From assembly GCA_038245295.1 (NCBI GenBank), contig JBBRSP010000052.1:1-20552 (forward strand): a DNA stretch of 20,552 nucleotides. The letters run 5' to 3'. Of this stretch, positions 134-20,552 are shown piece after piece; within the stretch, counting starts at the first letter, position 1; the number at the start of each line of letters is the position of its first letter. The notes beneath the pieces are model-generated. The model did not search any database. It had not been told where the DNA came from and worked only from the letters and a program-made list of their open reading frames with translations. A program made the position numbers and the translations under genes. This stretch comes from Candidatus Binatia bacterium. Lineage in GTDB: Bacteria; Desulfobacterota; Binatia; HRBIN30.

Positions 134-213
134 GGCTGCCCTTCTGGCCAGATAGCGACCTGTGGATCGAACTGCACGGCGTCAATCGTAATGGGCAATT
201 TTTGGTATTTCAT
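130..213 (-). pseudogene. 27-aa ORF MKYQKLPITIDAVQFDPQVAIWPEGQP, probably an N-terminal remnant of a common phage hypothetical protein
   Basis: ATGA overlaps at both ends. Resembles the MKYRKKPVVIEAVQ(F/W) N-terminus of a phage family that I recall being roughly 80-100 aa. Confidence 0.5.
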
Positions 214-539
214 TTCCTAATCAGACCTCCGCTGCCTGTCGGCGGCAGATGTGGTGTCGGGCTCGGCGTACGCGGCTCCGATGTAACCACTGGCGTAACT
301 GTTGGCGTTGGCGTAGTGGTGGGGCTCGGGAGTGCAGTCGCAGACGGTGAAGGTGACGGGGATGCGGTCACTGGCGGCGGTGTCGGCGGTGCCGTTACCG
401 TGCGGACAGGTGCCGTCGCTGTGGCTGTCGGCGAACTCGACGGCCCAGGTTTGGGCCCGTCGCAGAACGCCGCCATCACGATCAGGTACAGCCCGCCGAT
501 TGCCAGCGCCGCGAGGAGTCCGAGTGCGCGCCATTTCAC
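210..539 (-). CDS. 109-aa membrane-anchored or secreted Pro/Thr/Ser-rich protein ending LPPTGSGGLIRK
   Basis: GTG at 539 overlaps the holin stop (GTGA). MKWR is followed by about 20 hydrophobic residues and then a PT-rich stalk. The track start at 641 is probably too far upstream. Confidence 0.75.
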   Translation of the reverse strand: MKWRALGLLAALAIGGLYLIVMAAFCDGPKPGPSSSPTATATAPVRTVTAPPTPPPVTASPSPSPSATALPSPTTTPTPTVTPVVTSEPRTPSPTPHLPPTGSGGLIRK

Positions 540-881
540 CGCCTCACCACGCTCGCCTGAGCTTTCACCGTAGCCGTGCCCAGGATTGCGTTGACGACCT
601 GGTACACAACGATCAGCACCGCAATGATGCCGCCGCTCCACTCAGCCGGCAGGATGCCGCCTAAGCCCGCGATCAGCGCTCCGAGCACGCCTGCCAGCGT
701 CAGCAGGAACTTGCGGGAGGTTATGCGCGTGATAAACGACTCGTTACCCGCGACAACACCGGAGTCCGGAGCGGTGACGAGCGCGGCCAGGTCATGCACC
801 AGTTGCTCGAGCGCGGCCAGACGGTCGGCCTCATCGAGGCGAACCGGCTGCACCGGCGCAACGGTGACCGTCAGGCCGCCA

Positions 882-1978
<1,097 letters not shown>

Positions 1979-1982
<4 letters not shown>

Positions 1983-2089
1983 ATCTCATCCCTAACCGCG
2001 TTGACGCAGCCGGGCCGCACGCACACCGCCCGGTGCCATCGCTCCGACCAGACCAAACGATCTCGACAACTAATGCAGCAATGGTTCAT
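1979..2089 (-). CDS. 36-aa Cys-rich peptide MNHCCISCRDRLVWSERWHRAVCVRPGCVNAVRDEI, putative Zn ribbon
   Basis: GGGAGG SD 8 nt upstream. ATGA overlaps with both the upstream ORF and the endolysin start. CxxC...CxxxxC pattern. Confidence 0.7.
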
Positions 2090-2241
2090 GCCAACAACCT
2101 CCCAATCACTCCGGCCAGCCGGGTAAATTCGTTCAGCGTGGCTCGCTCCACCGCTTCCTGCGAGCGGACAATCTCAGCCAGCACGGCGGCTTTGACCGCC
2201 GCCTGCAGCTCTGGATGGGCATCGAGCCGTTGCGGGTTCAC
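2086..2241 (-). CDS. 51-aa helical hypothetical protein MNPQRLDAHPELQAAVKAAVLAEIVRSQEAVERATLNEFTRLAGVIGRLLA
   Basis: GTGA overlap with the upstream stop, GGAAGGGG upstream, ATGA overlap downstream. Confidence 0.7.
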   Translation of the reverse strand: MNPQRLDAHPELQAAVKAAVLAEIVRSQEAVERATLNEFTRLAGVIGRLLA

Positions 2242-3269
2242 GAGAACGTCGCCCCTTCCACTGCCGTTCCCGCCGCCTGTGCGCCGATCAGATGGGCGCG
2301 GGCATTGATCGAGCGCGGATGCCGGGACAGCTCCGCCGCGTAGGCGTCAACGACCGGGGCGATGGCTGCGAGGGCGATTGCCTTTGGGTCGCCCTGCAGC
2401 CCCGGCTGCGGCCCCGGCTGTGGCGTCGGATCTCCGACCGGCACGTACTCGCCGACCACGTTTACCCACTTGTCAGACGGATAGCCCTGCAACATCCACG
2501 GTCCCCACTGCAGGAAGTGCCACGCCGTCTCATCGGCCCCCTCCATACCCGTCTGATTGTTGTACCAGCCGCGGCCGTGAGCATCGGTGAAGGTCTCGCT
2601 CGCTTCATGTGAGCAAACTGCTTGGACTGCGGCCCGATAGTCCTGATCGCTCGTGCCCTGGTTACAGCCGGAGCAGCGCGGCGAGAACTGCGTCGAGTAC
2701 ACCAGTGGACCGGCCGACGGGTGGCTGAAGCTAGAGTGGTAGCCGCAGAAGCTGGTGCAGTTCGCCTCGCTCGTGCCGTCGAATTTGACCGTGATTCCGT
2801 CCGGCATCATGCACATGTACAGTGTCTGCGGGTCACCCAGCAGGACACCGGCCGGGCTGGTTGCCAGCCAGTCACCCAGTAGCTTCTGTACCTCGGAGTC
2901 GTACATCTCGCGGCCCGGCGTTGGCCCCTGAAACGAGCCGTACCATTTGCCCGCGCCGACTCCGAACGGCCGGAGCTTGGAGAGGTAACCGAACTCCATC
3001 ATCTCGTACAAAAAGCGGTCATGCGTGGCCTTGTCGCCCCAGTAGTTGCCGAGGTAGACGGTGACGAGCTTCGGTGCCGTCCAGGTCGGCTCGCCGTGGA
3101 ACTGGAGCGGCTGTACCGTGCCGTCTGCCGACATCGAAACCGGAACCGCGACGAGATCACTGTCGAGCACCGGCGGCGCGGCGAGTTGCCACGCAGGGTG
3201 CGGCCCGATTGCTCGCAGTCGCTCATGCACTTGCTGCTGCGCCGGTGTGTAGAGCTGTGGCGTGGTCAT
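2238..3269 (-). CDS. 343-aa EXORDIUM/Phi-1-like protein with HExxE motif, PQPG linker and C-terminal helical module
   Basis: LQFHGEP..VTVYLGNYW, LYMCMMPDGITV, FCGYH and SHEASETFTD..GRGWY..EGAD motifs. AAAGGA SD upstream. Confidence 0.7.
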   Translation of the reverse strand: MTTPQLYTPAQQQVHERLRAIGPHPAWQLAAPPVLDSDLVAVPVSMSADGTVQPLQFHGEPTWTAPKLVTVYLGNYWGDKATHDRFLYEMMEFGYLSKLRPFGVGAGKWYGSFQGPTPGREMYDSEVQKLLGDWLATSPAGVLLGDPQTLYMCMMPDGITVKFDGTSEANCTSFCGYHSSFSHPSAGPLVYSTQFSPRCSGCNQGTSDQDYRAAVQAVCSHEASETFTDAHGRGWYNNQTGMEGADETAWHFLQWGPWMLQGYPSDKWVNVVGEYVPVGDPTPQPGPQPGLQGDPKAIALAAIAPVVDAYAAELSRHPRSINARAHLIGAQAAGTAVEGATFS

Positions 3270-3300
3270 CTAGTGGTCCTTTCTCAGGTGAATGAAGAAG

Positions 3301-3402
3301 TTAACTGCCGCCAGCGCCGTCGAACATGGGAGGCTTGCGCTCATACTCGCGTCTGGGGCTCTCAGCGGTATGACCGAGCCAGATATCGCCAATGCCCGCC
3401 AT
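3301..3402 (-). CDS. 33-aa hypothetical peptide MAGIGDIWLGHTAESPRREYERKPPMFDGAGGS (alternative frame 3270..3407)
   Basis: AAGGAG lies 5 nt before ATG3402; TAA at 3301-3303. Confidence 0.45.
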   Translation of the reverse strand: MAGIGDIWLGHTAESPRREYERKPPMFDGAGGS

Positions 3403-3403
3403 T

Positions 3404-4033
3404 TCAACTCCTTCCCTCTAAGCCAAAGCGGCAGGTGCCTTCTACCCAGTACCCTGGTAGCCAGATCTTCTCTTCTGTGTCATACGGTGCTGAGACCGTC
3501 TCGCAGTAGTCGGCAAGTTCGCCGGGCGCTGCCATCTCTGCAATCTCATGCGCGACCGCGCTGAGCACAGCGTTCCTATCGGTGTTGAAGTTAATCACCG
3601 CATAGGGCACGTCTCCTAAGCGGCTGTGATAGCTCAGATAGCTGCCTGGTCGATAGGGGTCGGGCAGCTCAGTGCCCTGCACGTCGAACGGCACCATGAA
3701 CACCCAGACCGTATCGGGTAGACGGACGCCGGTGATCAATGCCTGAGCAGCCAGGTTCAACAAAATCGGGTCGTACACCACCACGTCGAGCGGTGGCAGC
3801 ATCGTCCCCGGCCCAGACTCCGGCAGGAAGCGAAAGTAGCCGTTCTCCACGATCCGCCTGATGTCCTCTGTGAGGCTCTCAGACGCCCGTGGCTGGCCCA
3901 CAAGTGAGAGGAATACCAGCTGTACGAGCGGGTGGGCAATCGCCACGCAGGTAGCGCGTGTGTCGGCGGGAGCGCAGCTTCGTACGATTGCAGGTGGTGG
4001 CGGCGGAGGGAACATGACCGTTTCTTTCGTCAC
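3404..4033 (-). CDS. 209-aa shorter homologue of the HExxE EXORDIUM/Phi-1-like protein
   Basis: GYFRFL, TVWVFMVPFDV, YLSYHS, VPYAVI, AHEIAEMA, ELADYC and LPGYW occur in the same order as the equivalent motifs in 2238..3269. GTGA overlap at the start. Confidence 0.65.
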   Translation of the reverse strand: MTKETVMFPPPPPPAIVRSCAPADTRATCVAIAHPLVQLVFLSLVGQPRASESLTEDIRRIVENGYFRFLPESGPGTMLPPLDVVVYDPILLNLAAQALITGVRLPDTVWVFMVPFDVQGTELPDPYRPGSYLSYHSRLGDVPYAVINFNTDRNAVLSAVAHEIAEMAAPGELADYCETVSAPYDTEEKIWLPGYWVEGTCRFGLEGRS

Positions 4034-4773
4034 TTAACGAACCTGATCCCGATCGAGATCGCAAGCACGACGACCCCCCACACGAGCGTCAACATCTGGT
4101 TGCGCCCCTGCGCGGTAGCCATCGCCGTTTCCAAGAGCCTGATCCGCTCGGGTAACTGAGACAGCCCAGCCGTGTTGATCGTGACCTCTACGGCGACCAC
4201 TCCCGTCGCTAACCCCAAGACCTGAGCACTGGCGAAGCTCGTCTCGATGCCCGTTACCCGGCCTTCGAGCGTCTTTAGCTCTGACGAAAGCTCGCGCCGC
4301 ATTGACTCGACCTCGTTCTCAACCCGTTGCTGTATCCCCGCCAGTTCAGCCCGTCCCGACTCTCGCTCCCACATGCGCTTGTTCTGGTCATCGAGCGTGG
4401 CGCGGAACTCGTTGGCGACCTGATTGCGAAGCTCCTGCGCCCGCTCGGCTTTATCGACGGCTTTCTCGGCGGCGATCAACGCGGCGGCAACCGCCTCTTT
4501 AGCGGCAGCAAGCGCCGCCTCCAACGCCCGCTGCCGGAGCACGTCAGCGCCGGTCTGAGCCTCCCAGCGGGTATCCTCGCGCAGGGCAATCGACTCGATG
4601 CGGGCCTCAAGCAGCTTTTGCAAAGCATCGAGGCCATGCTCCATCCGCGTGTTGAGAGCAGCGAGCCCTTGTGCCGAGAAGTCCTTGTCCGACTGGCGCA
4701 GCGTTGCCAGGATAGCCAGCGTTTGGCTATCGTCTATACGCTGAGACTGTGGAGTGATGCCAGAATCAGCCAT
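4030..4773 (-). CDS. 247-aa coiled-coil protein with a single C-terminal transmembrane anchor
   Basis: Long heptad-like helices (ALAAAKEAVAAALIAAEKAVDKAE..NEFRATLDDQ) and terminal MLTLVWGVVVLAISIGIRFVK. Confidence 0.8.
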   Translation of the reverse strand: MADSGITPQSQRIDDSQTLAILATLRQSDKDFSAQGLAALNTRMEHGLDALQKLLEARIESIALREDTRWEAQTGADVLRQRALEAALAAAKEAVAAALIAAEKAVDKAERAQELRNQVANEFRATLDDQNKRMWERESGRAELAGIQQRVENEVESMRRELSSELKTLEGRVTGIETSFASAQVLGLATGVVAVEVTINTAGLSQLPERIRLLETAMATAQGRNQMLTLVWGVVVLAISIGIRFVK

Positions 4774-4990
4774 AGGGGTTCTCGTTGTCCTTTTCGAGAA
4801 TCGCGGTCGATATCGCTATGTCCTGGTCAAACGCCGCCTCCAGGCTCTCCATGCGCCCCCGGAAACGGTTGGCCTGATCTGTCAGATCGAGCAGCTCCTG
4901 AATCGCCCGGTTATCGCGGGCAATCGACTGCTGCCGAGCCTGCTCTTGCAGCCACGCAGCGGTAAGCGGCGTGATATGTAGCGCGGTCAT
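4766..4990 (-). CDS. 74-aa helical hypothetical protein
   Basis: Starts 1 nt after the upstream stop and overlaps the next start by 8 nt. Confidence 0.7.
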   Translation of the reverse strand: MTALHITPLTAAWLQEQARQQSIARDNRAIQELLDLTDQANRFRGRMESLEAAFDQDIAISTAILEKDNENPYG

Positions 4991-4991
4991 C

Positions 4992-5180
4992 TCAGCCCCC
5001 CGCCGCCGCTGCCAGCGCTTCGTTCACAGCGGCCCGGAGCAGCTTCGGCATCGGCATCGTCGTCTCTGTTTCGCGGCAGTAGCAGCGCAAACAGATGCAG
5101 CGGTTGCTTGCCGGCGAACCACGCACGACCGAATCGTCGAGCTCTGTTTCAAAGTGACAAATGATGCAGATCAGGTCCAT
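4992..5180 (-). CDS. 62-aa Zn-finger-like protein
   Basis: CIIC...CICLRC pattern; GAGGAGG SD before GTG-ATG (5183/5180). Confidence 0.8.
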   Translation of the reverse strand: MDLICIICHFETELDDSVVRGSPASNRCICLRCYCRETETTMPMPKLLRAAVNEALAAAAGG

Positions 5181-5551: not shown

Positions 5552-6723
5552 AGCGGTGCCCCCGTCGCCGGGCTCAACTGCCTGGCAATCGCGTCAAGGA
5601 CGATCCCCATGTCGGCAAGCGTCGTGTCCAGTGACGGCGGCGGGTTGCCGAGATGGAGCACCAACTGGCCACGATTTCCCGCTGTGTCTCCCCCCTGGTT
5701 GCTGTCGAAGCTCACGTCAATCACGAAGTACGGCCCTTCGCCGTCCACCGTGGCCCAGGTACAGGCTCTAACCTCGTCCGGCTCACATTCGAGCTGTGTA
5801 CCGGCGACAATCAGCCCGCGGCCGCCGTCGCGCGTGACCGTAATCGCCGGTAGCGGCTCCGCGTGGACGGCAAGCCAGGTCTCTGCTTTCTGCGCCGCCG
5901 CGGCGTCGTCCATCGTGCCGCCGTCGATGATCTTGCGTTTGATTACCCCACTGCTCAGCGCCGTCGCCGCGCGGCTGGCGGTGTGGCGGGAGTCCACACC
6001 ACCGACCTGTGGCGGCCCGACCGCCGTGATCGGCGTCGTGTATTTGACCACCACCAACGCCGCCGATTCCACGTCTGAAAAATGCTTCTGCACGCCGCCA
6101 TCGGCCGAATAGATCTCGTAGTCCGGCGACTCCGGTGCTATGCGCGGCAGGAAGCGTGCCTTCTGCCCTTCCCAGACTGAGAAATCCCAGAGCAGGTTGC
6201 CGTCGCCGCCGATGTTCGAGACGAAGGCGATAATCTCGCTCGGAAACTTATCCCGCTGGCTCGCCTCGGTGATTGGCACCAGCGGATCGGACCATAACGC
6301 CCCCGGCTCAGGCAGAATCAGCGGCGCGGCAAGGCCGAGAACCTGCTTGAGAAACACGCCCGAAGTCGCATCGGCGGCACCGGATTCATAGAAATCGTCC
6401 GTGGTTGCCACGACTCCGTAGCCGGCCGCGGTAAAGCCGTGGATCTGCTGACCGGGGTCGTCCCAGTCGGTCAGACGGCCTTCCCAGCAGATGCGTCCCA
6501 GCCGAGAGATAACGACGTGCATGTTGCGGCGGAATTCGACCGGGCTCTCCAGCGGCCCGAACTCCGGCAGGTCCGGGTCGAGGATGCCGATCTGGGCTGC
6601 GTTGAAGCCGAGCGCGGTTGAACTCCAGGTCAACCGCGTCACCTGCGGGTCGATCTGGATCGTGGTCAGCGCATTCCCGCCCACGCCCACGGGCGCATAG
6701 CAGTTGAGGTTGTACATCACCAT
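5548..6723 (-). CDS. Tail tip / baseplate hub (Tal-like) minor tail protein, about 391 aa
   Basis: Second gene after the TMP, beta-rich, with an ICWEGRL motif. GGAGG before ATG6723 indicates a start downstream of the track's 6765. Confidence 0.65.
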   Translation of the reverse strand: MVMYNLNCYAPVGVGGNALTTIQIDPQVTRLTWSSTALGFNAAQIGILDPDLPEFGPLESPVEFRRNMHVVISRLGRICWEGRLTDWDDPGQQIHGFTAAGYGVVATTDDFYESGAADATSGVFLKQVLGLAAPLILPEPGALWSDPLVPITEASQRDKFPSEIIAFVSNIGGDGNLLWDFSVWEGQKARFLPRIAPESPDYEIYSADGGVQKHFSDVESAALVVVKYTTPITAVGPPQVGGVDSRHTASRAATALSSGVIKRKIIDGGTMDDAAAAQKAETWLAVHAEPLPAITVTRDGGRGLIVAGTQLECEPDEVRACTWATVDGEGPYFVIDVSFDSNQGGDTAGNRGQLVLHLGNPPPSLDTTLADMGIVLDAIARQLSPATGAPL

Positions 6724-8807
6724 GCCGGCCTCCCCGCATGGCGATAGCGCGGCGTGATATCGCATTTCACACGCAGCTTGGAGCCGATCACGTCGAATGA
6801 GCCATCGACGTTTTCCGGCACAAACAGCAGCTTGTTGGAACCGGGCTCGAGCGTCAGTTGCGAGACGGCATCGGCCTGTCCCAGCAAGGCGTTGTCGGAG
6901 GAGCGGTATATCAGCGCCGTGGTGCGTCCATCGGGACGATGGGTAATCACCCAGTAACGCTGCACCGGCACCGGGTCATCGGCCACGGCCACGCCAACGT
7001 AGCTCGCTTCTGCCTCGTGTGGCACGGTGAGGATGATATCCGCGTCGATCAGCGGCGCGCCGTTTAACGCCTGTGCCGACAGCAACGCTCGCCAGGGCAG
7101 CGCCACGCCCTGCGGTAGGCCCGTTGGCGGCAGGTGGAAGGTGCCCAGCGGCAGCAGTGCCCAACTGTTGGCCACGGCCGGCATGGAGACCGGGCCGCCG
7201 CTCTGGTACTGCGGGTTGGCCGTGTCCAGTGCCACGCTCGCGACCACGATCGGCGGCACTGAAGCGGCGATGTTCAGGCCACCGTAGCCGCCGGCACTGT
7301 AGCCGCCGGTCGAATCGAGCGTGAACGTGTACGACGTCGCCGTGACGGTGTGATCCAGATACTTCCAAACGCTGGTCGAGGCTTCGAGCCAGTAGGCGCG
7401 GAACTTGCTCGCCACAAACGTGCCGCTGTCAATCGTGACGTAGACGATCGACGGCTGCGAGAGGTAGAACACCTGCTGTAGACTGGCGGCTGACTCGGCA
7501 CCACCGGCGTTGAAGACGCTGCCACGCAGGGTCAGGTTTTGCAGCGGTGCGAAGTAGCTGCCAGATCCCGCCGCGGTGGGCATCGCCGTGAGCGTTGGTG
7601 TCGGTGGCCCGGCGATGCTGGTACGCATGCGGGCCAGTAGCGCCATACGGCCGTTGTTCAAAGCGGCACCTGTCGAAGCGGCCACGCCGATCGGCAGGTA
7701 GGTGGACGACAGTGACATCTCAGCCGTGGCACCGCCGGAGGCGGTCGCGTCGTTGAGCGCAAGTCCGGTTTGCCGCGCCTGAATCAGCGAGTTGCTCGCC
7801 GTCCAGCCGGTGAGTGCGATCGTGAAGCTCGCCTGTGGTGCCGCAGCGAGCGATCCTGCGAACGTGACCACGTACGGGTCGCCACCGGTGCCGGTGCCTG
7901 TCACGGTGGCCTTGCCGGAGCCGATCGAGGCGAGTCCCTGCAGTGCCGTTTGCAGGCTGGCAGCGGAGACGTTGTACGCCTGTGCAGCGGTCGTGTTGGC
8001 GCCGAAGGTCAGCGTAAACGTACCGGCCGCGGTGCCAGAGGTGCGATAGAGCCAGATCACGGTTGGCGACTGGGCTGCCACCTCGTAGCCGCAGGCCCAG
8101 TCGGCGTCGGCCATGCCGTCGTAGGCGCGGCGCCAGGTGCGCAGGCTTGTCCAGCGTCCCGTCGTGGAGAGGTCTTCCGCGGTCAGCTTCGGCAGCGCCG
8201 GTGCATCGCCGGGCACGTTGGGGATGTAGAGCGTACAGCCGATGCCGGCGGTCAGCGTGCCGGACCAGGTGCCGGGGATGGTGTCACCACGGGCGAACTG
8301 CCGGCAGTTGAGCGTGAGCATACCGCGGCGGATCGGCGTCTCCTTGAACTCCTCATCGAGTTTCACCGTCAGCAGCAGATGACCGGAGACGACATCGAAG
8401 TACACCCATTCCGAGGTATGCAAGGAAGCGTCACGCGAGGTCATCATTTTGACCCAGAGGCAGACCGGAAGCCCGCCGCCCTGTGCCGTCGACGCCTCGC
8501 GCGCCCGCTTGAGCCAGCGCTCGATCGCATCCACGTTCTGCCAGAGGTCATCAGGCGAGTCGCCCCAGATACGCAGCTCGATCTCGATCGTGCGGCCGGT
8601 ATCGCTGATCGCCTTGTCGAAATCGGGGGTAGACGCCTCATAGGCGCCCGGCCCCGCCGAGAGGTCGAGATAGTCGCCGGGCAGCCCGCCGGGCCAGTCG
8701 TCGCCGGTGCCAGCGGCGATCAACAGATGGCCGCCGGGCGCGTACTGGTCGCCGCGAGAATCGGTCAGAAAGCGCTGGCTGTAGTACGGCGCGATTGCGG
8801 TGGTCAT
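6717..8807 (-). CDS. Expanded distal tail (Dit-like) protein, 696 aa, with inserted accessory domains
   Basis: First gene after the TMP (ATGA overlap). Dit-like termini (RTIEIELRIWG; LTLNCRQFARG; NVPGDAPALPKL; LTLEPGSNKL..ITPRY) enclose about 400 aa of insertions. Confidence 0.7.
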   Translation of the reverse strand: MTTAIAPYYSQRFLTDSRGDQYAPGGHLLIAAGTGDDWPGGLPGDYLDLSAGPGAYEASTPDFDKAISDTGRTIEIELRIWGDSPDDLWQNVDAIERWLKRAREASTAQGGGLPVCLWVKMMTSRDASLHTSEWVYFDVVSGHLLLTVKLDEEFKETPIRRGMLTLNCRQFARGDTIPGTWSGTLTAGIGCTLYIPNVPGDAPALPKLTAEDLSTTGRWTSLRTWRRAYDGMADADWACGYEVAAQSPTVIWLYRTSGTAAGTFTLTFGANTTAAQAYNVSAASLQTALQGLASIGSGKATVTGTGTGGDPYVVTFAGSLAAAPQASFTIALTGWTASNSLIQARQTGLALNDATASGGATAEMSLSSTYLPIGVAASTGAALNNGRMALLARMRTSIAGPPTPTLTAMPTAAGSGSYFAPLQNLTLRGSVFNAGGAESAASLQQVFYLSQPSIVYVTIDSGTFVASKFRAYWLEASTSVWKYLDHTVTATSYTFTLDSTGGYSAGGYGGLNIAASVPPIVVASVALDTANPQYQSGGPVSMPAVANSWALLPLGTFHLPPTGLPQGVALPWRALLSAQALNGAPLIDADIILTVPHEAEASYVGVAVADDPVPVQRYWVITHRPDGRTTALIYRSSDNALLGQADAVSQLTLEPGSNKLLFVPENVDGSFDVIGSKLRVKCDITPRYRHAGRPAW

Positions 8808-11800
8808 CGTGTGAACCTCACAATCGGCCGGAGGTTGAGCGAGATCTTGCGCTGAATCGCCCGCCCCGCGGCTGAGCCGATCAGGTAGCTATCGATGTAC
8901 AGGTTCGTCTGCTGTTGCTGCTGCGACAGCGCCGTAACCGCTGCCGTGGTGTCCTGCACAGCCGCCTGTGTCTCCTGCAGCACCGGCACGATCGCGCTCG
9001 TGTTCTGTGCGATCGTGGCGAGCTGCACATTCGTGTTCGACGGGCTGGCAGACGCGAAAAAGCCGCCTTGAATATCGCCCGACTGCCGTCCCTCGGGGCC
9101 GAAACTACTGCCGCCCAACGAACCGAGGCTACTCGCCGTTCTGCCCGTGTTTTGAGCCGTAGCGGCGGTATTCTGAGCCGTGGCGGCGGTATTCTGCAGG
9201 ACAGCGTTAAGATCTTCGCTGTCCTTACCAGAGAGCCGCATCACGCCCGGATGCGCGGCGGTGAAGGCGGCTGCCACGGCATCTTCCTGCTGCTTAAGGA
9301 TTGTCCCCACTGCGGCCGCCCACAGACCCGGCTCGCTCCTTTGGAAAATCGCTAAGTACTGCCTGGCGAAGTTGTCGTACTGGTCCTGAGCGATACCGGC
9401 AGGGGCAGTGCCCCCTAGCCCAGCAACCCCACCGCCGGCACCACCGGTGCCAATCCTGCCCGCTGCTGCTGCCAGCGCCTTGCCGCCGGCAGACACATCA
9501 CCGGCACCGGAGCCGAGCGCCGTCGCGGAGGTTGCCACCATGCCGGAGGCGTTAATCGAGTAGGTGACGCCCTGTGCGGTGGTGATCGTCTGGGTGACTG
9601 CGGCCTGTCCCTGTGCCGTGGCAGCCGCTACCCCGGCAGCGTTCGCCGGGGCAAGCGCACCGCTAACCGACGCACTCACCGCCCCCGGAATCGCGCTGCC
9701 GCCGGGCGAGAGTGCGTTGTAAACCATCGACGGCACGGGATCGAGCGCGTCAAAGACCATCGACGGCACGGGCTCGAGCGCCGTGCCGATCGTCTTGGTG
9801 AGGTGCTCAGACAGGGCCGGGTCGGGCACCGTAATCCCTGTACCGGCGCCGCCCTGCTGTGACGGCATGCCGCCGGGGAAGGGCCCACCGGTGCCGGCGC
9901 CGCCCTGCATGGCAGACGTATTCGCGTTAAGCGCCGCCGTGTTCAGTTCGGTCGCCGTAGTCTGTGCCGTGAGAAACGGCTGGCTTTCGGTCAGCGCTTT
10001 GGCAACGGCGCCGTTAGCGTTGACCACGGCATCGCTTGCCTGTTGTTCTTTCAGCGCTGCAGGGCTGGTCGCGTTCATGCCGGCAAGCACCGACGCAGCC
10101 ACACTACCGCCTGCACCCGGCTCGCCCGCAGCGAGCGCAGCCTGATTCCTTCCGAACGCCTCCCAGAAGGCGGCCACGGCGGCCGACGGCACTTCGTCGG
10201 CCTGCATGATGTGCGGGCCGCCGCCGGGCAGACCCATGCCTGAAAGGCCCGCGTTGATCGTCTTGATGTCGATGGCAGAGAGCGCGGTGCCGGCGATACC
10301 TGCGGCCGTGCCGAGCGCCGTAATCGCCCGCGCAGTCAGGTTCAGCGCGATCGTGGTATCGCCAATGGACTGCAGCAGTTGATGCGCCTGGTCGCTGCCA
10401 GCCGGGGCGAACTGCTGCTGCGTGCGCAACTGCGCCAGATTGGCGGTGAGCTGCGACTGTTGCCCCATCAGCCCCGGCAGCAGGTCGGACTCGTGTTGCA
10501 GTGCCGCCCGCTGCGAGCCCACGACGTTCGGATCGGCCAGTTGCAACTGGATCGCGTACTGGGCGTTGCCGAGGCTTATCTGCGCGTTGATACCGGTCTC
10601 GTAGTCCGCAAGCACGCTCTTATTGGCGGCGATCAGATCCTGTGCGGCTTTCTGTGCGATGGCCACTTCATCGTTGGCCGTGGTTTGGGCGAGTCCGAGC
10701 CGCTTCTGGGCTATATCCACGGCGGACTGGTAGACCTGCAGATCGTTGCCCACCAGATGCCGGGCCTTGGCGTCATCGAGGGCTTGCACGGCATCGTTAT
10801 AGACTCCCTGCGCCGTGATCTGATCGCCTATCCCTCCGAGCGCCGTCTGTCTCGTGCGGTCAAGCACGGCCTGATCGTGAATCGCCGTCTGCTCAGTAAT
10901 CTGCTCATGGCCCTTTGCCGTGCCCAGATCGAGCACCTCGAAGAATTGCTTGTACTCCTGGCTGAGGGCTCGTTTGCCGTTGTCAGCATCGATGGCCGAC
11001 TGTACGCTTGCGGCGTCAGCCGCCTGCGTCTGTTGCGTGTTGGCGGTCAGATCCTTGTCGTACTCGCCGGCAGACTTACGCCAAGCGGCGGTCTTTTCGC
11101 CAGCCGCATCGTTGGCCGACTTGGCGATATCCTGGTCCGCCTTGAGCGTGGCGGGCTCAACGTTGTTCTGAATATCGTCAAGTACCTGCTGATTGGCGCG
11201 GCCGGCCTCAGAGATGGCGGCCAGCGCAGCGTCGTGATCGGCGTCAGCCTGTGTCTTCGCGCCCGCAAGTGTGGCATCCGTCACCGTCTGTACACCGTTG
11301 ACAATGCCCTTATTGACATCGTTCCATTCGGTGCCAAGCGTGACCAACGCCTTGCGTGCCGTCTCAGCGGCCGCGTCGATGCTGACGGGCGTCTCTGGTG
11401 CCGGTGAGGGGAGTTGGCCGTTGACATCAGAGCCGGCGGCGCCGGGTGCGAACGTGCCGGGAGTGCCGGGAGTACCTGTTCCTGCGAAGGCGGCAGGGTT
11501 ACCAGTGCCGAGCGTGGGCTTCGATGAGGTTGCAGTTCCGAGCCACTCACCCGGTCCCGCATAGCCGTGGTGTTTCAGAGCCTCAAGAAACGCATTGAAA
11601 TCGCCCGCGTTAGCGGCAGCCACCGCGTCGGGGTATCTCTGCCACCACGCGTCGAGCGAGCCGACACCGGCTGCTATCGACGGGAAGAGCGACTGATTGG
11701 TGTAGCCGGCCGGAGCACCCACGCCCGCGGACCCGGCCGCTGTCCCGCCGGACTTGAACATCTTTGAGCCAACGCTGTTCAGCGCCCCCGGTGCAAAGCC

Positions 11801-14800
11801 GAACATCGGTTCATTATCGCCGGGCGATGGCAACGGCAATGTCGATTCGTGCGCCTGAATCGCCGCGTACCACGCCGGCGGCAGTCCACCAATGGAGCCG
11901 CCCACCACGGTGACGGGTACGGGGCCGCCGGCAGCGCCCGCCAAGCCGCCGCCGGGGCCGAGTAGCGTCAGCGGGTCAACCAACTGGCCGGCTGGATTGC
12001 GGATCTGGATTTCCGTGTGCGGGCCGGTCGTTACGCCGGATGTCGGCGAACCGACTTCGCCGCCGGAAAGTCCCACGGTAACGCCGGCAGCGATCTTATC
12101 GCCTACGGACACCAAGGCCTTGTCCAGATGGCCGATCGTCTCTTCAAAGCCGCTGTCGAGTTTGATCGTGACCGAGAGGCCGATGCCGCCCTGTCCTTCG
12201 TTGGTGACCTTCGTAACGATGCCTGGGCCGCCTGAGATCAGCGGCGATCCGACCGTGGGAATGCCGAAATCGACACCCTGCTCCCCCTTGACGCCGAACT
12301 TCTGCGTCACCGCCACGTCAGAGCCGAGCTGCGCGACCGGGGAGAGAATGCCGCCGCCAGCCGACCCCGGCACTCCCGCGCCGGCCGCCGCAATCCCCGC
12401 TGCGATCGTCGGTCCCAGGTTCTTCACCGCCGCGCCGAACGAGCCGAGCTTGCTGATCGAGCCGTCGATCTTCGCTGTGATATCGTCCCAGGCCGTGGCG
12501 ATCGGCTTGAGCGAGCCGGGAACGTCCCTGCCAGCGGTAGCTGACGCCGTGGTGAAGCCTTCGGTTGCGTTCTTGGCGTCTTTGGCCGGCTGTACCGTGC
12601 TCCCGATCGCCACAGCAAGCGGCGGCATCACGGCGAGTTGATGATCAAAGTGCGGATTGCCGGCTGCCACGGCCAGCGCGTGCGCCTCGGTTGCGTTCTT
12701 GGCGTCCACCAGCGGCGTGAGCTGGTCCTGCAGCCCCTTGCGTGTCGGCTCCAACTGGTCAAGCCGGATCTGTGTGGCGGCCGCGTCAGCCCCCGCCGGT
12801 CCCGTCTGCGACAGCGCCAGATCGAGCGTTGCCTTTGCCTTTGTCTGGTCCGACATCTTAGCGCCGGTAAGCACGGACTGGTCATAGATGCGCTGCAGAT
12901 CGGCGACATGTCGCGCGGCCGGGCTGGAGTTGGAGAGCGCCGCATGCAGTTGATCGATGGTCAGGGTGACATCGGCGATTTTCGCCTTGACGTCGAGCTC
13001 TTCCTGCGACGGGATATGCAGCATCCCGGCCCAGTCGTCGTGCAGCTTCTTGACCTTGATATCCGCGTTGCCAAGCTCGCCCTGAAAGGCGGTGAGCATG
13101 GCTCCCCAGTCGCCGTTATCTTTGGCCTCGGTGAAGGCGTCAGAGAGCGCCTGGGCTTGCCGGGCGGTTTCGGCGGCGGCGGGCCCCAGCGTAGCCACAG
13201 CCTCGTATAGCGCCTTCGTGCTGGTCACCGCTGCCGTCTGGCTCGGGTCGAGGCTGTTCTTGATGATGTCGTCAAGGCCGGCGATCTTCGCTCGCTGGTC
13301 ACTGGCAGAGAGACCGGCAAAGGCGAGCGCTCCAGCCCAGTCGTGCTGAAAGACCGCCGCGTCCTGTGTCGATTTACTGGCCGTGGTGACGGCGGTGTTG
13401 AGTAGGCCAAGTGCGCCAGCATGGGAGCCGAGCCCAGCAGTAGACAGGCCCAGCGAGGCTGCCATCGTATCGACGTGATCTTTCATGCCAGCCGCGGCAG
13501 CGGACGCCTCGCCGATCTGCCCCATCCAGCGGCCTTGCGCCGCACGATCCTTGTCGATCGCGTCGCTCAGATAACGGGTGGCGTCTGTGGTCTTTTCCAC
13601 CTCCGTCGTGACCTGATTGAGAGGACTCTTGGCCCATTCGGTATTAAGTGCCGCCAAGGCCTTATGCGTGGCGTCGTACTGGCCCTGAAGTTTGGCGATC
13701 TCCTCTTTGAGCTTGGTGATCTCATCACGCAGGGATTTCGACTGTTGCGACTGGACACCGTGAGCGTCGTTGGATTTAGCGAGCGCCGTGTACAGCCCTT
13801 CGAGTTGGTCTTTCTCCTCGGCTAGCTTGATCCCGAGGTCATAGGTCGCGGTGTAGGCGGTTTGCAGCTTTGCCGGCAGATCGGTCGCTGCCGCAAGTAG
13901 TTTATTGAGCCCATCCGTCGCCTCTTTGGCGCCGCCGTCATGCAGCTTGTGCAGGCTGCCGTCGAGGTCGCTTGCATCCTGCGATAGATGCTGGATCGCA
14001 AGTCCGGCCGCCACCGCAATCAGACCAATCGGACCGAGTGCAATCGCGGCAGCACCACCAGTCGCGGCAGCGCTGCCGGCCGCCGCCGCAAGGCCGCCCT
14101 GAGCCACGGCCAGCGCCTCAGTGGGCGCGACCGCCGCGCCCGTCGCGGCTTCGAACTCCAGCACACCAGCCGCCGCCGCTGTCTCGCTTGCCGCCACGGC
14201 GGTGCTGCCGCCCACGAGCGACGTGAGACTGCCGAGGGTGGACATCGCCCCCTCACCAAGCTTGAGCAGCGCCGACGCCCCAAGCAGCGTGCCGCCCGCC
14301 AGCAACGGCAGCGTCACGACCAGATCCTTGACCGGACCCGGCAGCTTGTTCAGCGCGTCGGTGGCCGCAGTAACGCCGCCGACGATAGCGGTAAAGGTCG
14401 GCGCCACGTCGGAGCCGATCGAGGCACCAAGCGCTTGCAGCTCCAGATGCAGTTCGGCGCTCTTCTGCTTGAACGCTTCGATATGAGCGACCTGTTCCTC
14501 GGAGCCGAGTCCCAGCGTTTTCGCCTTATCCGTCCAGTTCTGGAGTCCGGCGGAGCCTTGCTCCAAAAGCGGCACGAGCTGCGGGCCGAGTCGCGCACCG
14601 AACAATTGCGCCGCAAGTCCGGCCGCATTGAAGGCTTCGCCGCCCCCTTTTGCCCGCTCCGCCCCCTGCTGAAAGGCGTCGGCAATCGAAGGCAGCAGTT
14701 CGGCCAGCGGTCGAATATTGCCGTCAGCACCCTGCGCCTGCACACCGAGATCGGCGAACGCCTTTGCCAGATTGCCGGTTAATGGCTTGCCGGCATCAAG

Positions 14801-15358
14801 CTCCTGCTGCATGGTCTGCAAGCCGAGATTGACCCGCATCAGGGCGCGATCGGCAGAACCCGCCGGCTGGCCAATCGACTCCAGTTCAGCGTTCAGACCG
14901 GCAATGGCCGTGGTCGTCAGGCCGGTTTGCAGCGCGGTCAGATGCAGGGTTTCGATGCCAGTCTCGAAACTGTGAAAGGAGATACCGGCGGCAGCCACGC
15001 CGATACCGGCGATCCCCGTGCCTAGTAGCGCGAGTTGGCCCACGCCAGACTCAGACGCCTTGCCCATCGTTTGGATTGCGTCAGCGGCGATGTGGATCGC
15101 GTTGGAGAGACCGGGGATCTGCTCGCCGGCAAGCTCCTGCGCTTTGGCGCCCAGTTCGTGCAGCGACTTGGTGCTCTCGCTGGCTTTAGCGGCGTGGTCT
15201 TCGTGGGCCTTGCCGAGCTTGTCGGTCGGGCCGGCTAGCGCGTCTGATGCGTCTTTCGCTGTCTGCAGCGCCTCACGATAGGCGAGCGCCTGCTGGGTTC
15301 CGGCCTCGAAGCCTTCCGTGCTCAAAATCGAGCGAAGCACACTTGCATCGACGGACAA
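8804..15358 (-). CDS. Tape measure protein, 2184 aa, with internal M23-like and GH73-like domains
   Basis: Very long Ala/Gly-rich helical ORF after the chaperone. TMP-type segment AFADLGVQ..DGNIRP..AAQLFG..LVPLL. TTG start with GAGGGG SD. Confidence 0.93.
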   Translation of the reverse strand: MSVDASVLRSILSTEGFEAGTQQALAYREALQTAKDASDALAGPTDKLGKAHEDHAAKASESTKSLHELGAKAQELAGEQIPGLSNAIHIAADAIQTMGKASESGVGQLALLGTGIAGIGVAAAGISFHSFETGIETLHLTALQTGLTTTAIAGLNAELESIGQPAGSADRALMRVNLGLQTMQQELDAGKPLTGNLAKAFADLGVQAQGADGNIRPLAELLPSIADAFQQGAERAKGGGEAFNAAGLAAQLFGARLGPQLVPLLEQGSAGLQNWTDKAKTLGLGSEEQVAHIEAFKQKSAELHLELQALGASIGSDVAPTFTAIVGGVTAATDALNKLPGPVKDLVVTLPLLAGGTLLGASALLKLGEGAMSTLGSLTSLVGGSTAVAASETAAAAGVLEFEAATGAAVAPTEALAVAQGGLAAAAGSAAATGGAAAIALGPIGLIAVAAGLAIQHLSQDASDLDGSLHKLHDGGAKEATDGLNKLLAAATDLPAKLQTAYTATYDLGIKLAEEKDQLEGLYTALAKSNDAHGVQSQQSKSLRDEITKLKEEIAKLQGQYDATHKALAALNTEWAKSPLNQVTTEVEKTTDATRYLSDAIDKDRAAQGRWMGQIGEASAAAAGMKDHVDTMAASLGLSTAGLGSHAGALGLLNTAVTTASKSTQDAAVFQHDWAGALAFAGLSASDQRAKIAGLDDIIKNSLDPSQTAAVTSTKALYEAVATLGPAAAETARQAQALSDAFTEAKDNGDWGAMLTAFQGELGNADIKVKKLHDDWAGMLHIPSQEELDVKAKIADVTLTIDQLHAALSNSSPAARHVADLQRIYDQSVLTGAKMSDQTKAKATLDLALSQTGPAGADAAATQIRLDQLEPTRKGLQDQLTPLVDAKNATEAHALAVAAGNPHFDHQLAVMPPLAVAIGSTVQPAKDAKNATEGFTTASATAGRDVPGSLKPIATAWDDITAKIDGSISKLGSFGAAVKNLGPTIAAGIAAAGAGVPGSAGGGILSPVAQLGSDVAVTQKFGVKGEQGVDFGIPTVGSPLISGGPGIVTKVTNEGQGGIGLSVTIKLDSGFEETIGHLDKALVSVGDKIAAGVTVGLSGGEVGSPTSGVTTGPHTEIQIRNPAGQLVDPLTLLGPGGGLAGAAGGPVPVTVVGGSIGGLPPAWYAAIQAHESTLPLPSPGDNEPMFGFAPGALNSVGSKMFKSGGTAAGSAGVGAPAGYTNQSLFPSIAAGVGSLDAWWQRYPDAVAAANAGDFNAFLEALKHHGYAGPGEWLGTATSSKPTLGTGNPAAFAGTGTPGTPGTFAPGAAGSDVNGQLPSPAPETPVSIDAAAETARKALVTLGTEWNDVNKGIVNGVQTVTDATLAGAKTQADADHDAALAAISEAGRANQQVLDDIQNNVEPATLKADQDIAKSANDAAGEKTAAWRKSAGEYDKDLTANTQQTQAADAASVQSAIDADNGKRALSQEYKQFFEVLDLGTAKGHEQITEQTAIHDQAVLDRTRQTALGGIGDQITAQGVYNDAVQALDDAKARHLVGNDLQVYQSAVDIAQKRLGLAQTTANDEVAIAQKAAQDLIAANKSVLADYETGINAQISLGNAQYAIQLQLADPNVVGSQRAALQHESDLLPGLMGQQSQLTANLAQLRTQQQFAPAGSDQAHQLLQSIGDTTIALNLTARAITALGTAAGIAGTALSAIDIKTINAGLSGMGLPGGGPHIMQADEVPSAAVAAFWEAFGRNQAALAAGEPGAGGSVAASVLAGMNATSPAALKEQQASDAVVNANGAVAKALTESQPFLTAQTTATELNTAALNANTSAMQGGAGTGGPFPGGMPSQQGGAGTGITVPDPALSEHLTKTIGTALEPVPSMVFDALDPVPSMVYNALSPGGSAIPGAVSASVSGALAPANAAGVAAATAQGQAAVTQTITTAQGVTYSINASGMVATSATALGSGAGDVSAGGKALAAAAGRIGTGGAGGGVAGLGGTAPAGIAQDQYDNFARQYLAIFQRSEPGLWAAAVGTILKQQEDAVAAAFTAAHPGVMRLSGKDSEDLNAVLQNTAATAQNTAATAQNTGRTASSLGSLGGSSFGPEGRQSGDIQGGFFASASPSNTNVQLATIAQNTSAIVPVLQETQAAVQDTTAAVTALSQQQQQTNLYIDSYLIGSAAGRAIQRKISLNLRPIVRFTR
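9149..9196. repeat. 21-bp period imperfect tandem repeat in the TMP (QNTAATA units)
   Basis: tgagccgt(a/g)gcggcggtattc repeated; protein reads QNTAATAQNTAATAQNT. Confidence 0.85.
9723..9781. repeat. 33-bp period repeat in the TMP (11-aa unit AL(E/D)PVPSMV)
   Basis: accatcgacggcacggg(a/c)tcgagcgc at 9723 and 9756. Confidence 0.9.
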
Positions 15359-19338: not shown

Positions 19339-19827
19339 TTAGGCGCTGGTGACCAGCCGCCAGTCGGGGGCCAGTGGCGTGCCCGCCTGGACGTAGATCT
19401 TCCCATTGGTCGTGTCGATCGTGCGGGCGCCCTTCGGTGCTCCGCGTCCGTGGGCAGCAACGCCGGGGGTCGTGTTGGCGATTGCCGCCGTGCCGCCCGT
19501 GGCAGCGCTGTTATCGACGCCAATCACGGAGACGGGACGCAGGGCAAGGTTGCCGCCAAAGGTGATCATCCACGGTCCTGTACCCGTAAGAGCCACGCCG
19601 GCCGCGCCGATCGTCGGTAGGGCAATGAGTGCAGCCTGAATCGTGGCGGCGGCGGCGCCGAAAGCCAGCGCCGTCGTACGTGCGCCCTCGTAGCTGAGCA
19701 CGTAGGTGCCGCCAGTGGCGGTGACGGTGAGCGTTTGCACGGCGTTGGTACCGGCAGCCGGCACGCCAGCACTGAAGTAACCCTCGAAGAGCCCATCCAA
19801 AGCGTGGAAACCCGTGATTGCTGCCAT
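19339..19827 (-). CDS. Probable capsid decoration or head-fibre protein, 162 aa
   Basis: Directly after the major capsid gene, AGGAG SD, A/G/T-rich, with a NAVQTLTV..GGTYVLSY..IQAALIAL..PWMITF module. Confidence 0.65.
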   Translation of the reverse strand: MAAITGFHALDGLFEGYFSAGVPAAGTNAVQTLTVTATGGTYVLSYEGARTTALAFGAAAATIQAALIALPTIGAAGVALTGTGPWMITFGGNLALRPVSVIGVDNSAATGGTAAIANTTPGVAAHGRGAPKGARTIDTTNGKIYVQAGTPLAPDWRLVTSA

Positions 19828-19918: not shown

Positions 19919-20551
19919 CTAAAGCAACCCTGTGACTGTGGCGAAGGCCAGCGGACGGTAAACCGTAAGAGCAAGACGCTCTTCGTCGCGGATGGCGATC
20001 AGATTGCGCCGGAAGTCGTCCTCGTTGCTATTCGTCGCCTCGATTGCGCCCTCGTCACGCCGCCAGAGCTGCGCGCCGAGCTTGTAGGCGCCGACCAGCG
20101 CCGTACCGCTGGTCATCGCTGTGGTGGTGACCACCGTGAGACCCCACAGCCGCTCAGGCGCGGTATCGGCCGGGTTGCCGAACAAGTACGAGCCGGTAGT
20201 CGTGGTCAGCAGGCGAATCGCCTGCCAGTTGAGCGGATTCATCACGATGCCATCGGGATCGAAGTAGCCGACGGTCATCACCTTCACCATCGCTTTGTAA
20301 ACCGCATCGGGTCCGGGATCGCCACCGCGCGCCTGCGTCTGGATGCCGCTCACGTTGAGCAGACCGAGAATATGTGGTGCTGTGCCGGTGCCGCTCAGCA
20401 ACTCAACGTCTTCGCGCAGTTCGAGCATGTTATCGAGGCGGTTGTTGATGTAGTCCCGCAGCATGGCGTAGTCAGCGAACAGCTCGTCTGTGACCTTAGC
20501 CGTGACGGCGATCTTGCGCACCGGCGCATCAACCTCTTTGGTGTCGAACAC
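19919..20551 (-). CDS. Major capsid protein, HK97 fold (C-terminal part; 5' end outside the window)
   Basis: VRKIAVTAKVTDEL, ELLSGTGT, IVMNPLNWQAIRLL..GSYLFG, RLWGLTVV and FRRNLIAIRDEERLALTVYRPLAF motifs. Confidence 0.97.
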   Translation of the reverse strand: MFDTKEVDAPVRKIAVTAKVTDELFADYAMLRDYINNRLDNMLELREDVELLSGTGTAPHILGLLNVSGIQTQARGGDPGPDAVYKAMVKVMTVGYFDPDGIVMNPLNWQAIRLLTTTTGSYLFGNPADTAPERLWGLTVVTTTAMTSGTALVGAYKLGAQLWRRDEGAIEATNSNEDDFRRNLIAIRDEERLALTVYRPLAFATVTGLL

Positions 20552-20552
20552 G

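Follow-up and report, generated by a model that had tools for sequence, protein, structure and literature searches.

Phage-encoded relatives of the Phi_1/EXORDIUM family with a predicted zincin fold: candidate accessory lysis enzymes

The 20,552-bp contig JBBRSP010000052.1 (G000:C52), the whole of which is the window analysed here and which is binned as Candidatus Binatia bacterium, carries a phage late operon on its minus strand. Two neighbouring genes of this operon encode homologous proteins distantly related to the Phi_1/EXORDIUM family (PF04674, IPR006766). We propose that phage proteins of this kind are holin-released, zincin-type metallopeptidases acting on the host envelope, and we judge the chances that this is correct to be about even. 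The proposal builds on the homology of the two proteins, the predicted fold of the longer one, a set of invariant residues, the position of the genes in the operon and the repeated occurrence of homologues close to lysin or holin genes. By position and architecture, the window proteins resemble accessory lysis enzymes.

The longer gene (P0001; 2238..3269, minus strand) encodes 343 amino acids (aa) and is preceded by the ribosome-binding site GAAAGGA; the shorter one (P0002; 3404..4033, minus strand) encodes 209 aa, or 203 aa from the ATG at 4015, and the 203-aa form (P0008) was used for analysis. Both open reading frames (ORFs) exist where the initial annotation had placed them, and their coding bias is normal, with a third-position GC content of 0.80 and 0.71, respectively, compared with 0.75-0.78 in other late genes. 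All the motifs listed in that annotation occur in the same order in both proteins. The homology it had claimed was not significant in a BLASTP comparison of P0001 with P0008 (E 0.75); a comparison of the family profile with P0008 established it (148 columns, 96% probability, E 3e-9), P0008 scoring 60.8 with the profile, whereas 60 shuffles reached no more than 19.7 and eight other window proteins no more than 16.9.

Neither window protein matches PF04674 at its gathering cut-off (25 bits), and P0001 gives no match even at E 10. The suggested relationship to Phi_1/EXORDIUM was nevertheless borne out through homologues: the cut-off was passed by 4 of 67 scanned homologues (P0013, P0026, P0060 and P0061), four of the six members of alignment A1 match the family weakly, and Phi_1 is annotated on 10% of the members of the top Atlas cluster. 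The likeness consists of an ordered series of motifs, YHxG, CxxxCG(F/Y)H, CxxxC, HExxE..(D/N)P..W and ExxD. Unlike the plant members, the window proteins are phage-encoded and lack a signal peptide, and P0001 carries a Pro-rich linker and a helical tail. With a six-sequence profile, 5,815 clusters were retrieved at E<=0.001. The window proteins are covered by no NCBIfam or PHROG family, and no sequence-level match to them was found in the PDB. With respect to PF04674 they are remote kin that fall short of the cut-off, and they count as zincins by predicted fold rather than by canonical motif. The literature that we searched describes neither phage members of this family nor its zincin fold, and a full-text search returned no paper combining 'endolysin', 'holin' and 'zincin'; the part of bioRxiv 2022.06.01.492581 available to us reports no bacterial EXORDIUM members. 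A chromosomal member in the bin itself (G000:C10:35711-37198; L002 6712-8199) has a signal peptide, and its C-terminus is extended by a Cys-rich part; fusions of the domain to DyP peroxidase, PPC, LGFP or DUF4214 modules occur in other bacteria (P0068, P0076, P0105, P0060, P0094).

P0001 consists of a low-confidence leader of about 40 aa, the Phi_1-related zincin-fold domain (about residues 41-280), the Pro-rich linker and a two-helix tail. The initial annotation had suspected a zincin-like metal site; the predicted structure of P0001 does have a zincin fold, and its best structural matches are peptidases. The zincins compared, archaemetzincin (PDB 2x7m, 3zvs, 3lmc), reprolysins/ADAMs and Bacteroides MPII (4on1), share 8-12% identity with it and carry HExxHxxGxxH, whereas the window family has HExxE, with a distal ExxD 17 residues on as the candidate third ligand. 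HExxE (H221-E222-x-x-E225; 2595..2609, minus strand), invariant in 98 of 98 aligned rows, lies on the predicted active-site helix of P0001 (residues 208-228), where zincins have HExxH, and in place of the metzincin HExxHxxGxx(H/D) and Met-turn the consensus reads HExxEAxTDPxGxGW with no conserved Met. In gluzincins (HExxH...E), the third ligand is a Glu some 20 residues downstream of the motif. The earlier claim of conserved His, Glu and Asp residues also held. H178 of CGYH (2736..2738, minus strand) is as invariant as HExxE (98/98) and lies on strand 176-183, which in the model would take the position of the zincin upper-rim strand; in ExxD (2532..2543, minus strand), a putative metal-binding element, E243 is found in 97 and D246 in 96 of the 98 rows. 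The spacing from HExxE to ExxD is most commonly 17 residues (89 proteins) and only 5 in P0008. This reduced, fast-evolving protein keeps YH, HExxE (162-166) and ExxD (172-175) and is devoid of the four Cys, the TDP..GW loop, the linker and the tail; it is probably either a second enzyme reduced to its essentials or a copy in decay.

As had been noted initially, the window proteins have no evident signal peptide: judged by hydropathy only, P0001 has no hydrophobic N-terminus and the hydrophobic stretch of P0008 aligns with strand 1 of the domain. This absence carries little weight because 73 of 92 cellular members also lack a signal peptide. The lysin-like architecture of domain, linker and tail, on the other hand, proved to be a trait of a phage-like lineage. 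In a quick tree, P0001, P0007 (from L001), both copies of L003 and the L012 protein belong to a fast-evolving assemblage that is separated from the cellular group with support 88; L006/L008 and L005 fall within or beside the cellular group. Of the 44 proteins of the fast-evolving assemblage, 35 have a Pro linker and 1 has a hydrophobic N-terminus; of the 92 others, 12 have the linker and 19 such an N-terminus. Kin are not independent in these counts. The tail of P0001 matches no family in Pfam, PHROG or NCBIfam and gives no significant match to lysin tails. In phage and cellular members alike, the domain is preceded by a leader predicted with low confidence (residues 1-45 in P0001), in which a conserved (Q/R)IVP-like motif comes before DSDL or HELL; this leader is a candidate latency pro-segment. 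In three phage loci, a Pro-rich insertion lies within the domain and not after it (L006 8010-8864, L008 7962-8816, L005 5176-6063).

Scans of viral and metagenome contigs for homologues added eight distinct elements to the window. In six of these nine, the window and five other phage sequences, the gene is linked to lysin or holin genes. In L001, a GH25 lysin and a holin-like ORF follow the gene at a distance of about 0.5 kb, and L003 has two copies, the second of which precedes a GH25-like lysin by about 0.5 kb. In L006, a GH25+amidase lysin and an LL-H holin are followed by the gene (1-nt overlap) and a phosphoesterase; in L008, the gene follows an LL-H holin (8-nt overlap); and in L012/L013, a phrog_291 lysin, a 69-aa membrane ORF and the gene are joined by 4-nt overlaps. 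On chromosomes, we surveyed the best 80 of at least 560 loci of the cellular sub-alignment A6. Among 80 of 88 representative adjacent ORFs scanned there (8 short or antisense-looking ones were dropped), 55 had a Pfam match, none of them to a lysis or virion family, and the surroundings are housekeeping; these loci were chosen for the cellular clade and are uninformative on the phage-like lineage. In 22 of the 80 chromosomal loci (L014-L093), the Phi_1-like gene has a PF04185 phosphoesterase gene nearby, and in phage L006 (8922-11957) one directly follows it, which is curious given the name phosphate-induced protein.

In the proposed mechanism, translation of the late transcript would place both proteins in the cytoplasm, from which the holin would release them, and the 343-aa enzyme would be tethered to the envelope by its Pro linker and helical tail. 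H221, E225 and E243 (or D229/D246) would bind the metal and E222 would act as the general base, as in a gluzincin with one His changed to Glu. Peptide stems or cross-bridges, or surface-layer proteins, may be the target, so that peptide bonds would be cut at lysis, usually beside a muramidase. Holin-endolysin cassettes with accessory enzymes, such as the LysA/LysB/holin cassette of mycobacteriophages, share two traits with the window: the late operon couples a further enzyme gene without a signal sequence to the lysin and holin genes, and the catalytic domain is followed by linker and tail. Mycobacteriophage LysB itself is an alpha/beta-hydrolase esterase, unlike the window proteins.

A complete 63.4-kb phage (G005) carries a holin and Phi_1-like gene pair. 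No lysin was found in it by 19 lysin-family searches, 3 of which matched no control either, or by PHROG scans of 24 ORFs from the terminase to just past the holin, which cover half of the genome; in the related phage G004, a lysin occupies the corresponding position. The seeded search used on G005 missed PF04674 in four of six records that carry the gene. The Phi_1-like gene as the only lytic enzyme of G005 is therefore a lead, not proof. A bolder extension, that Phi_1/EXORDIUM is an unrecognised class of HExxE zincin peptidases recruited several times by phages as a new class of endolysin able to serve as sole lytic enzyme, seems possible to us but rather improbable. The linkage to lysis genes is not universal: the gene is unlinked in L004/L005, where the holin is 5 kb off, and in L007 and L130, which have long fused, host-like forms.

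Among the alternatives, the strongest, to which we give about half the credence of the lysis proposal, is that the gene is moron-like late-operon cargo: a host-type metalloenzyme from the variable tail-lysis region, which would serve the lysogen, or be of use once released, but would not help to break the envelope. The family is common on chromosomes, with at least 560 confirmed stretches for A6, mostly from Dormibacterota, Chloroflexota and Acidobacteriota, and with members in 8 of 31 genomes comprising the bin and its relatives (7 of the 30 relatives). Co-oriented secreted cargo genes flank the gene in L001, L006 and L008, a separate lysin or presumed lysin is present in five of the six linked phages, and the unlinked L005 also suits cargo. 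This reading fits less well with the stop/start overlaps between the gene and holin or membrane genes, seen in L006, L008 and L012/L013 and, by way of the chain described below, in the window, with the lack of a promoter-like site ahead of either window gene, or with a distinct fast-evolving lineage with its Pro linker and variable tail; the failure to find another lysin in the half of G005 that was read also speaks against it. The initial annotation had favoured a non-peptidoglycan target, by analogy with LysB. A lysis-associated non-peptidase metallohydrolase, which would cut a wall glycopolymer at an ester, amide or phosphodiester bond, is in our view unlikely: the best structural matches are peptidases, a PPC fusion exists, and the phosphoesterase-linked loci come mostly from one related genome group and are not independent. 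Such a target is not favoured over peptide bonds because of the peptidase fold and the one complete phage with a holin and no recognisable muralytic lysin. Least probable of all is that the gene closes the tail module and encodes a protease of the virion or of tail maturation: although the last tail-type gene shares 4 nt with one of the L003 copies and both window genes follow tail genes in one transcript, the gene comes after the lysin or holin gene in L006, L008 and L012/L013, matches no PHROG structural family and has no match in GenBank phages and none at E<=0.001 in BFVD.

EXORDIUM proteins are described as resembling nothing of known function and as having no known biochemical activity in the portions of PMC2661892 and PMC13103426 at hand. 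They mediate brassinosteroid-driven cell expansion, and the second of these papers (2026) still calls their activity unknown. The predicted zincin fold and the named catalytic residues offer a testable lead on EXORDIUM activity, in plants and bacteria alike. In the accessible part of supplement 2 of PMC2661892, Sorghum, poplar, moss, grape, rice and spruce sequences keep CGFH...HE(L/I)(A/S)E..NP..AWY...E(I)(A/G)DLC; the motif-bearing plant clade has HELAE/HEIAE and EIADLC, and a second clade, with IATVLAG and EAVSAC at these positions, has lost the motif. Judging from these sequences, part of the plant family retains the motif. If the extension to the whole family holds, the plant clade with HExxE...ExxD would be wall metallopeptidases and the motif-less clade pseudo-enzymes. 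For phages, the lysin repertoire would gain a new catalytic domain invisible to Pfam, PHROG and NCBIfam, which may account for phages seemingly without an endolysin.

The operon around the two genes is denser than initially described. The 134-nt spacer between them was confirmed, but it is not merely a gap, as it holds a 33-aa ORF (3301..3402, minus strand) with a strong ribosome-binding site and no PHROG match. Likewise, the genes do lie near the presumed lysin and holin, but not directly upstream: a 51-aa ORF (2086..2241, minus strand), which overlaps the P0001 stop by 4 nt, and a 36-aa ORF (1979..2089, minus strand), which bridges to the presumed lysin through 4-nt overlaps, intervene. On the other side, a 247-aa coiled-coil-like protein with a C-terminal membrane helix (4030..4773, minus strand) overlaps the GTG start of the 209-aa gene. 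From this membrane protein to the presumed lysin, the chain comprises four 4-nt stop/start overlaps and two short gaps. The one terminator-like hairpin, a weak one within the 209-aa gene, is fewer than expected by chance.

The presumed lysin is a 366-aa GH25-like protein (882..1982, minus strand) with a (PV)n linker and a helical tail, and the holin-like ORF encodes 150 aa with two predicted membrane helices (536..988, minus strand). Neither matches Pfam or PHROG; in an alignment of the 366-aa protein, two of six members match GH25 (PF01183) weakly (best E 0.012). With five homologues at 43-50% identity, it represents a divergent GH25-like family missed by Pfam, PHROGs and NCBIfam. Its (PV)n linker derives from a 6-bp tandem repeat near 1103-1180, and its tail weakly resembles that of the L001 GH25 lysin (E 0.25).

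The host is uncertain because the contig has no flanking host gene and its tetranucleotide usage is the second most deviant of 36 mid-sized contigs. A 143-aa Pro/Thr-rich membrane protein (210..641, minus strand) ends in LPPTGSGG, which we take to be a sortase-type, LPxTG-like motif. L001 has a counterpart (4533-5045) near its Phi_1-like homologue; both proteins end in LPxTGSGG with no membrane helix after the motif, and the phages are related. No sortase was found in the bin, so the contig may be mis-binned, and the combination hints at a different, monoderm host.

Elsewhere, the operon encodes a capsid protein, a head-tail adaptor, a tail terminator, tail-type proteins and a 2,184-aa tape-measure-like protein (8804-15358, minus strand) with an internal M23 peptidase domain (E 8.5e-11). 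The window end (20190-20552) overlaps contig C66 (G000:C66:1-8625) by 363 bp at 96% identity, and ORFs of C66 resemble, by inspection, the remaining capsid gene, a prohead protease, a portal and a terminase; from its sequence, C66 appears to belong to the same phage or a close variant. A phrog_10909/2839 tail-type module occurs twice in the window, in a small protein encoded after the capsid gene (19339-19827, minus strand) and in a tail protein (6717-8807, minus strand), and recurs in L001 and in the tail protein of G005.
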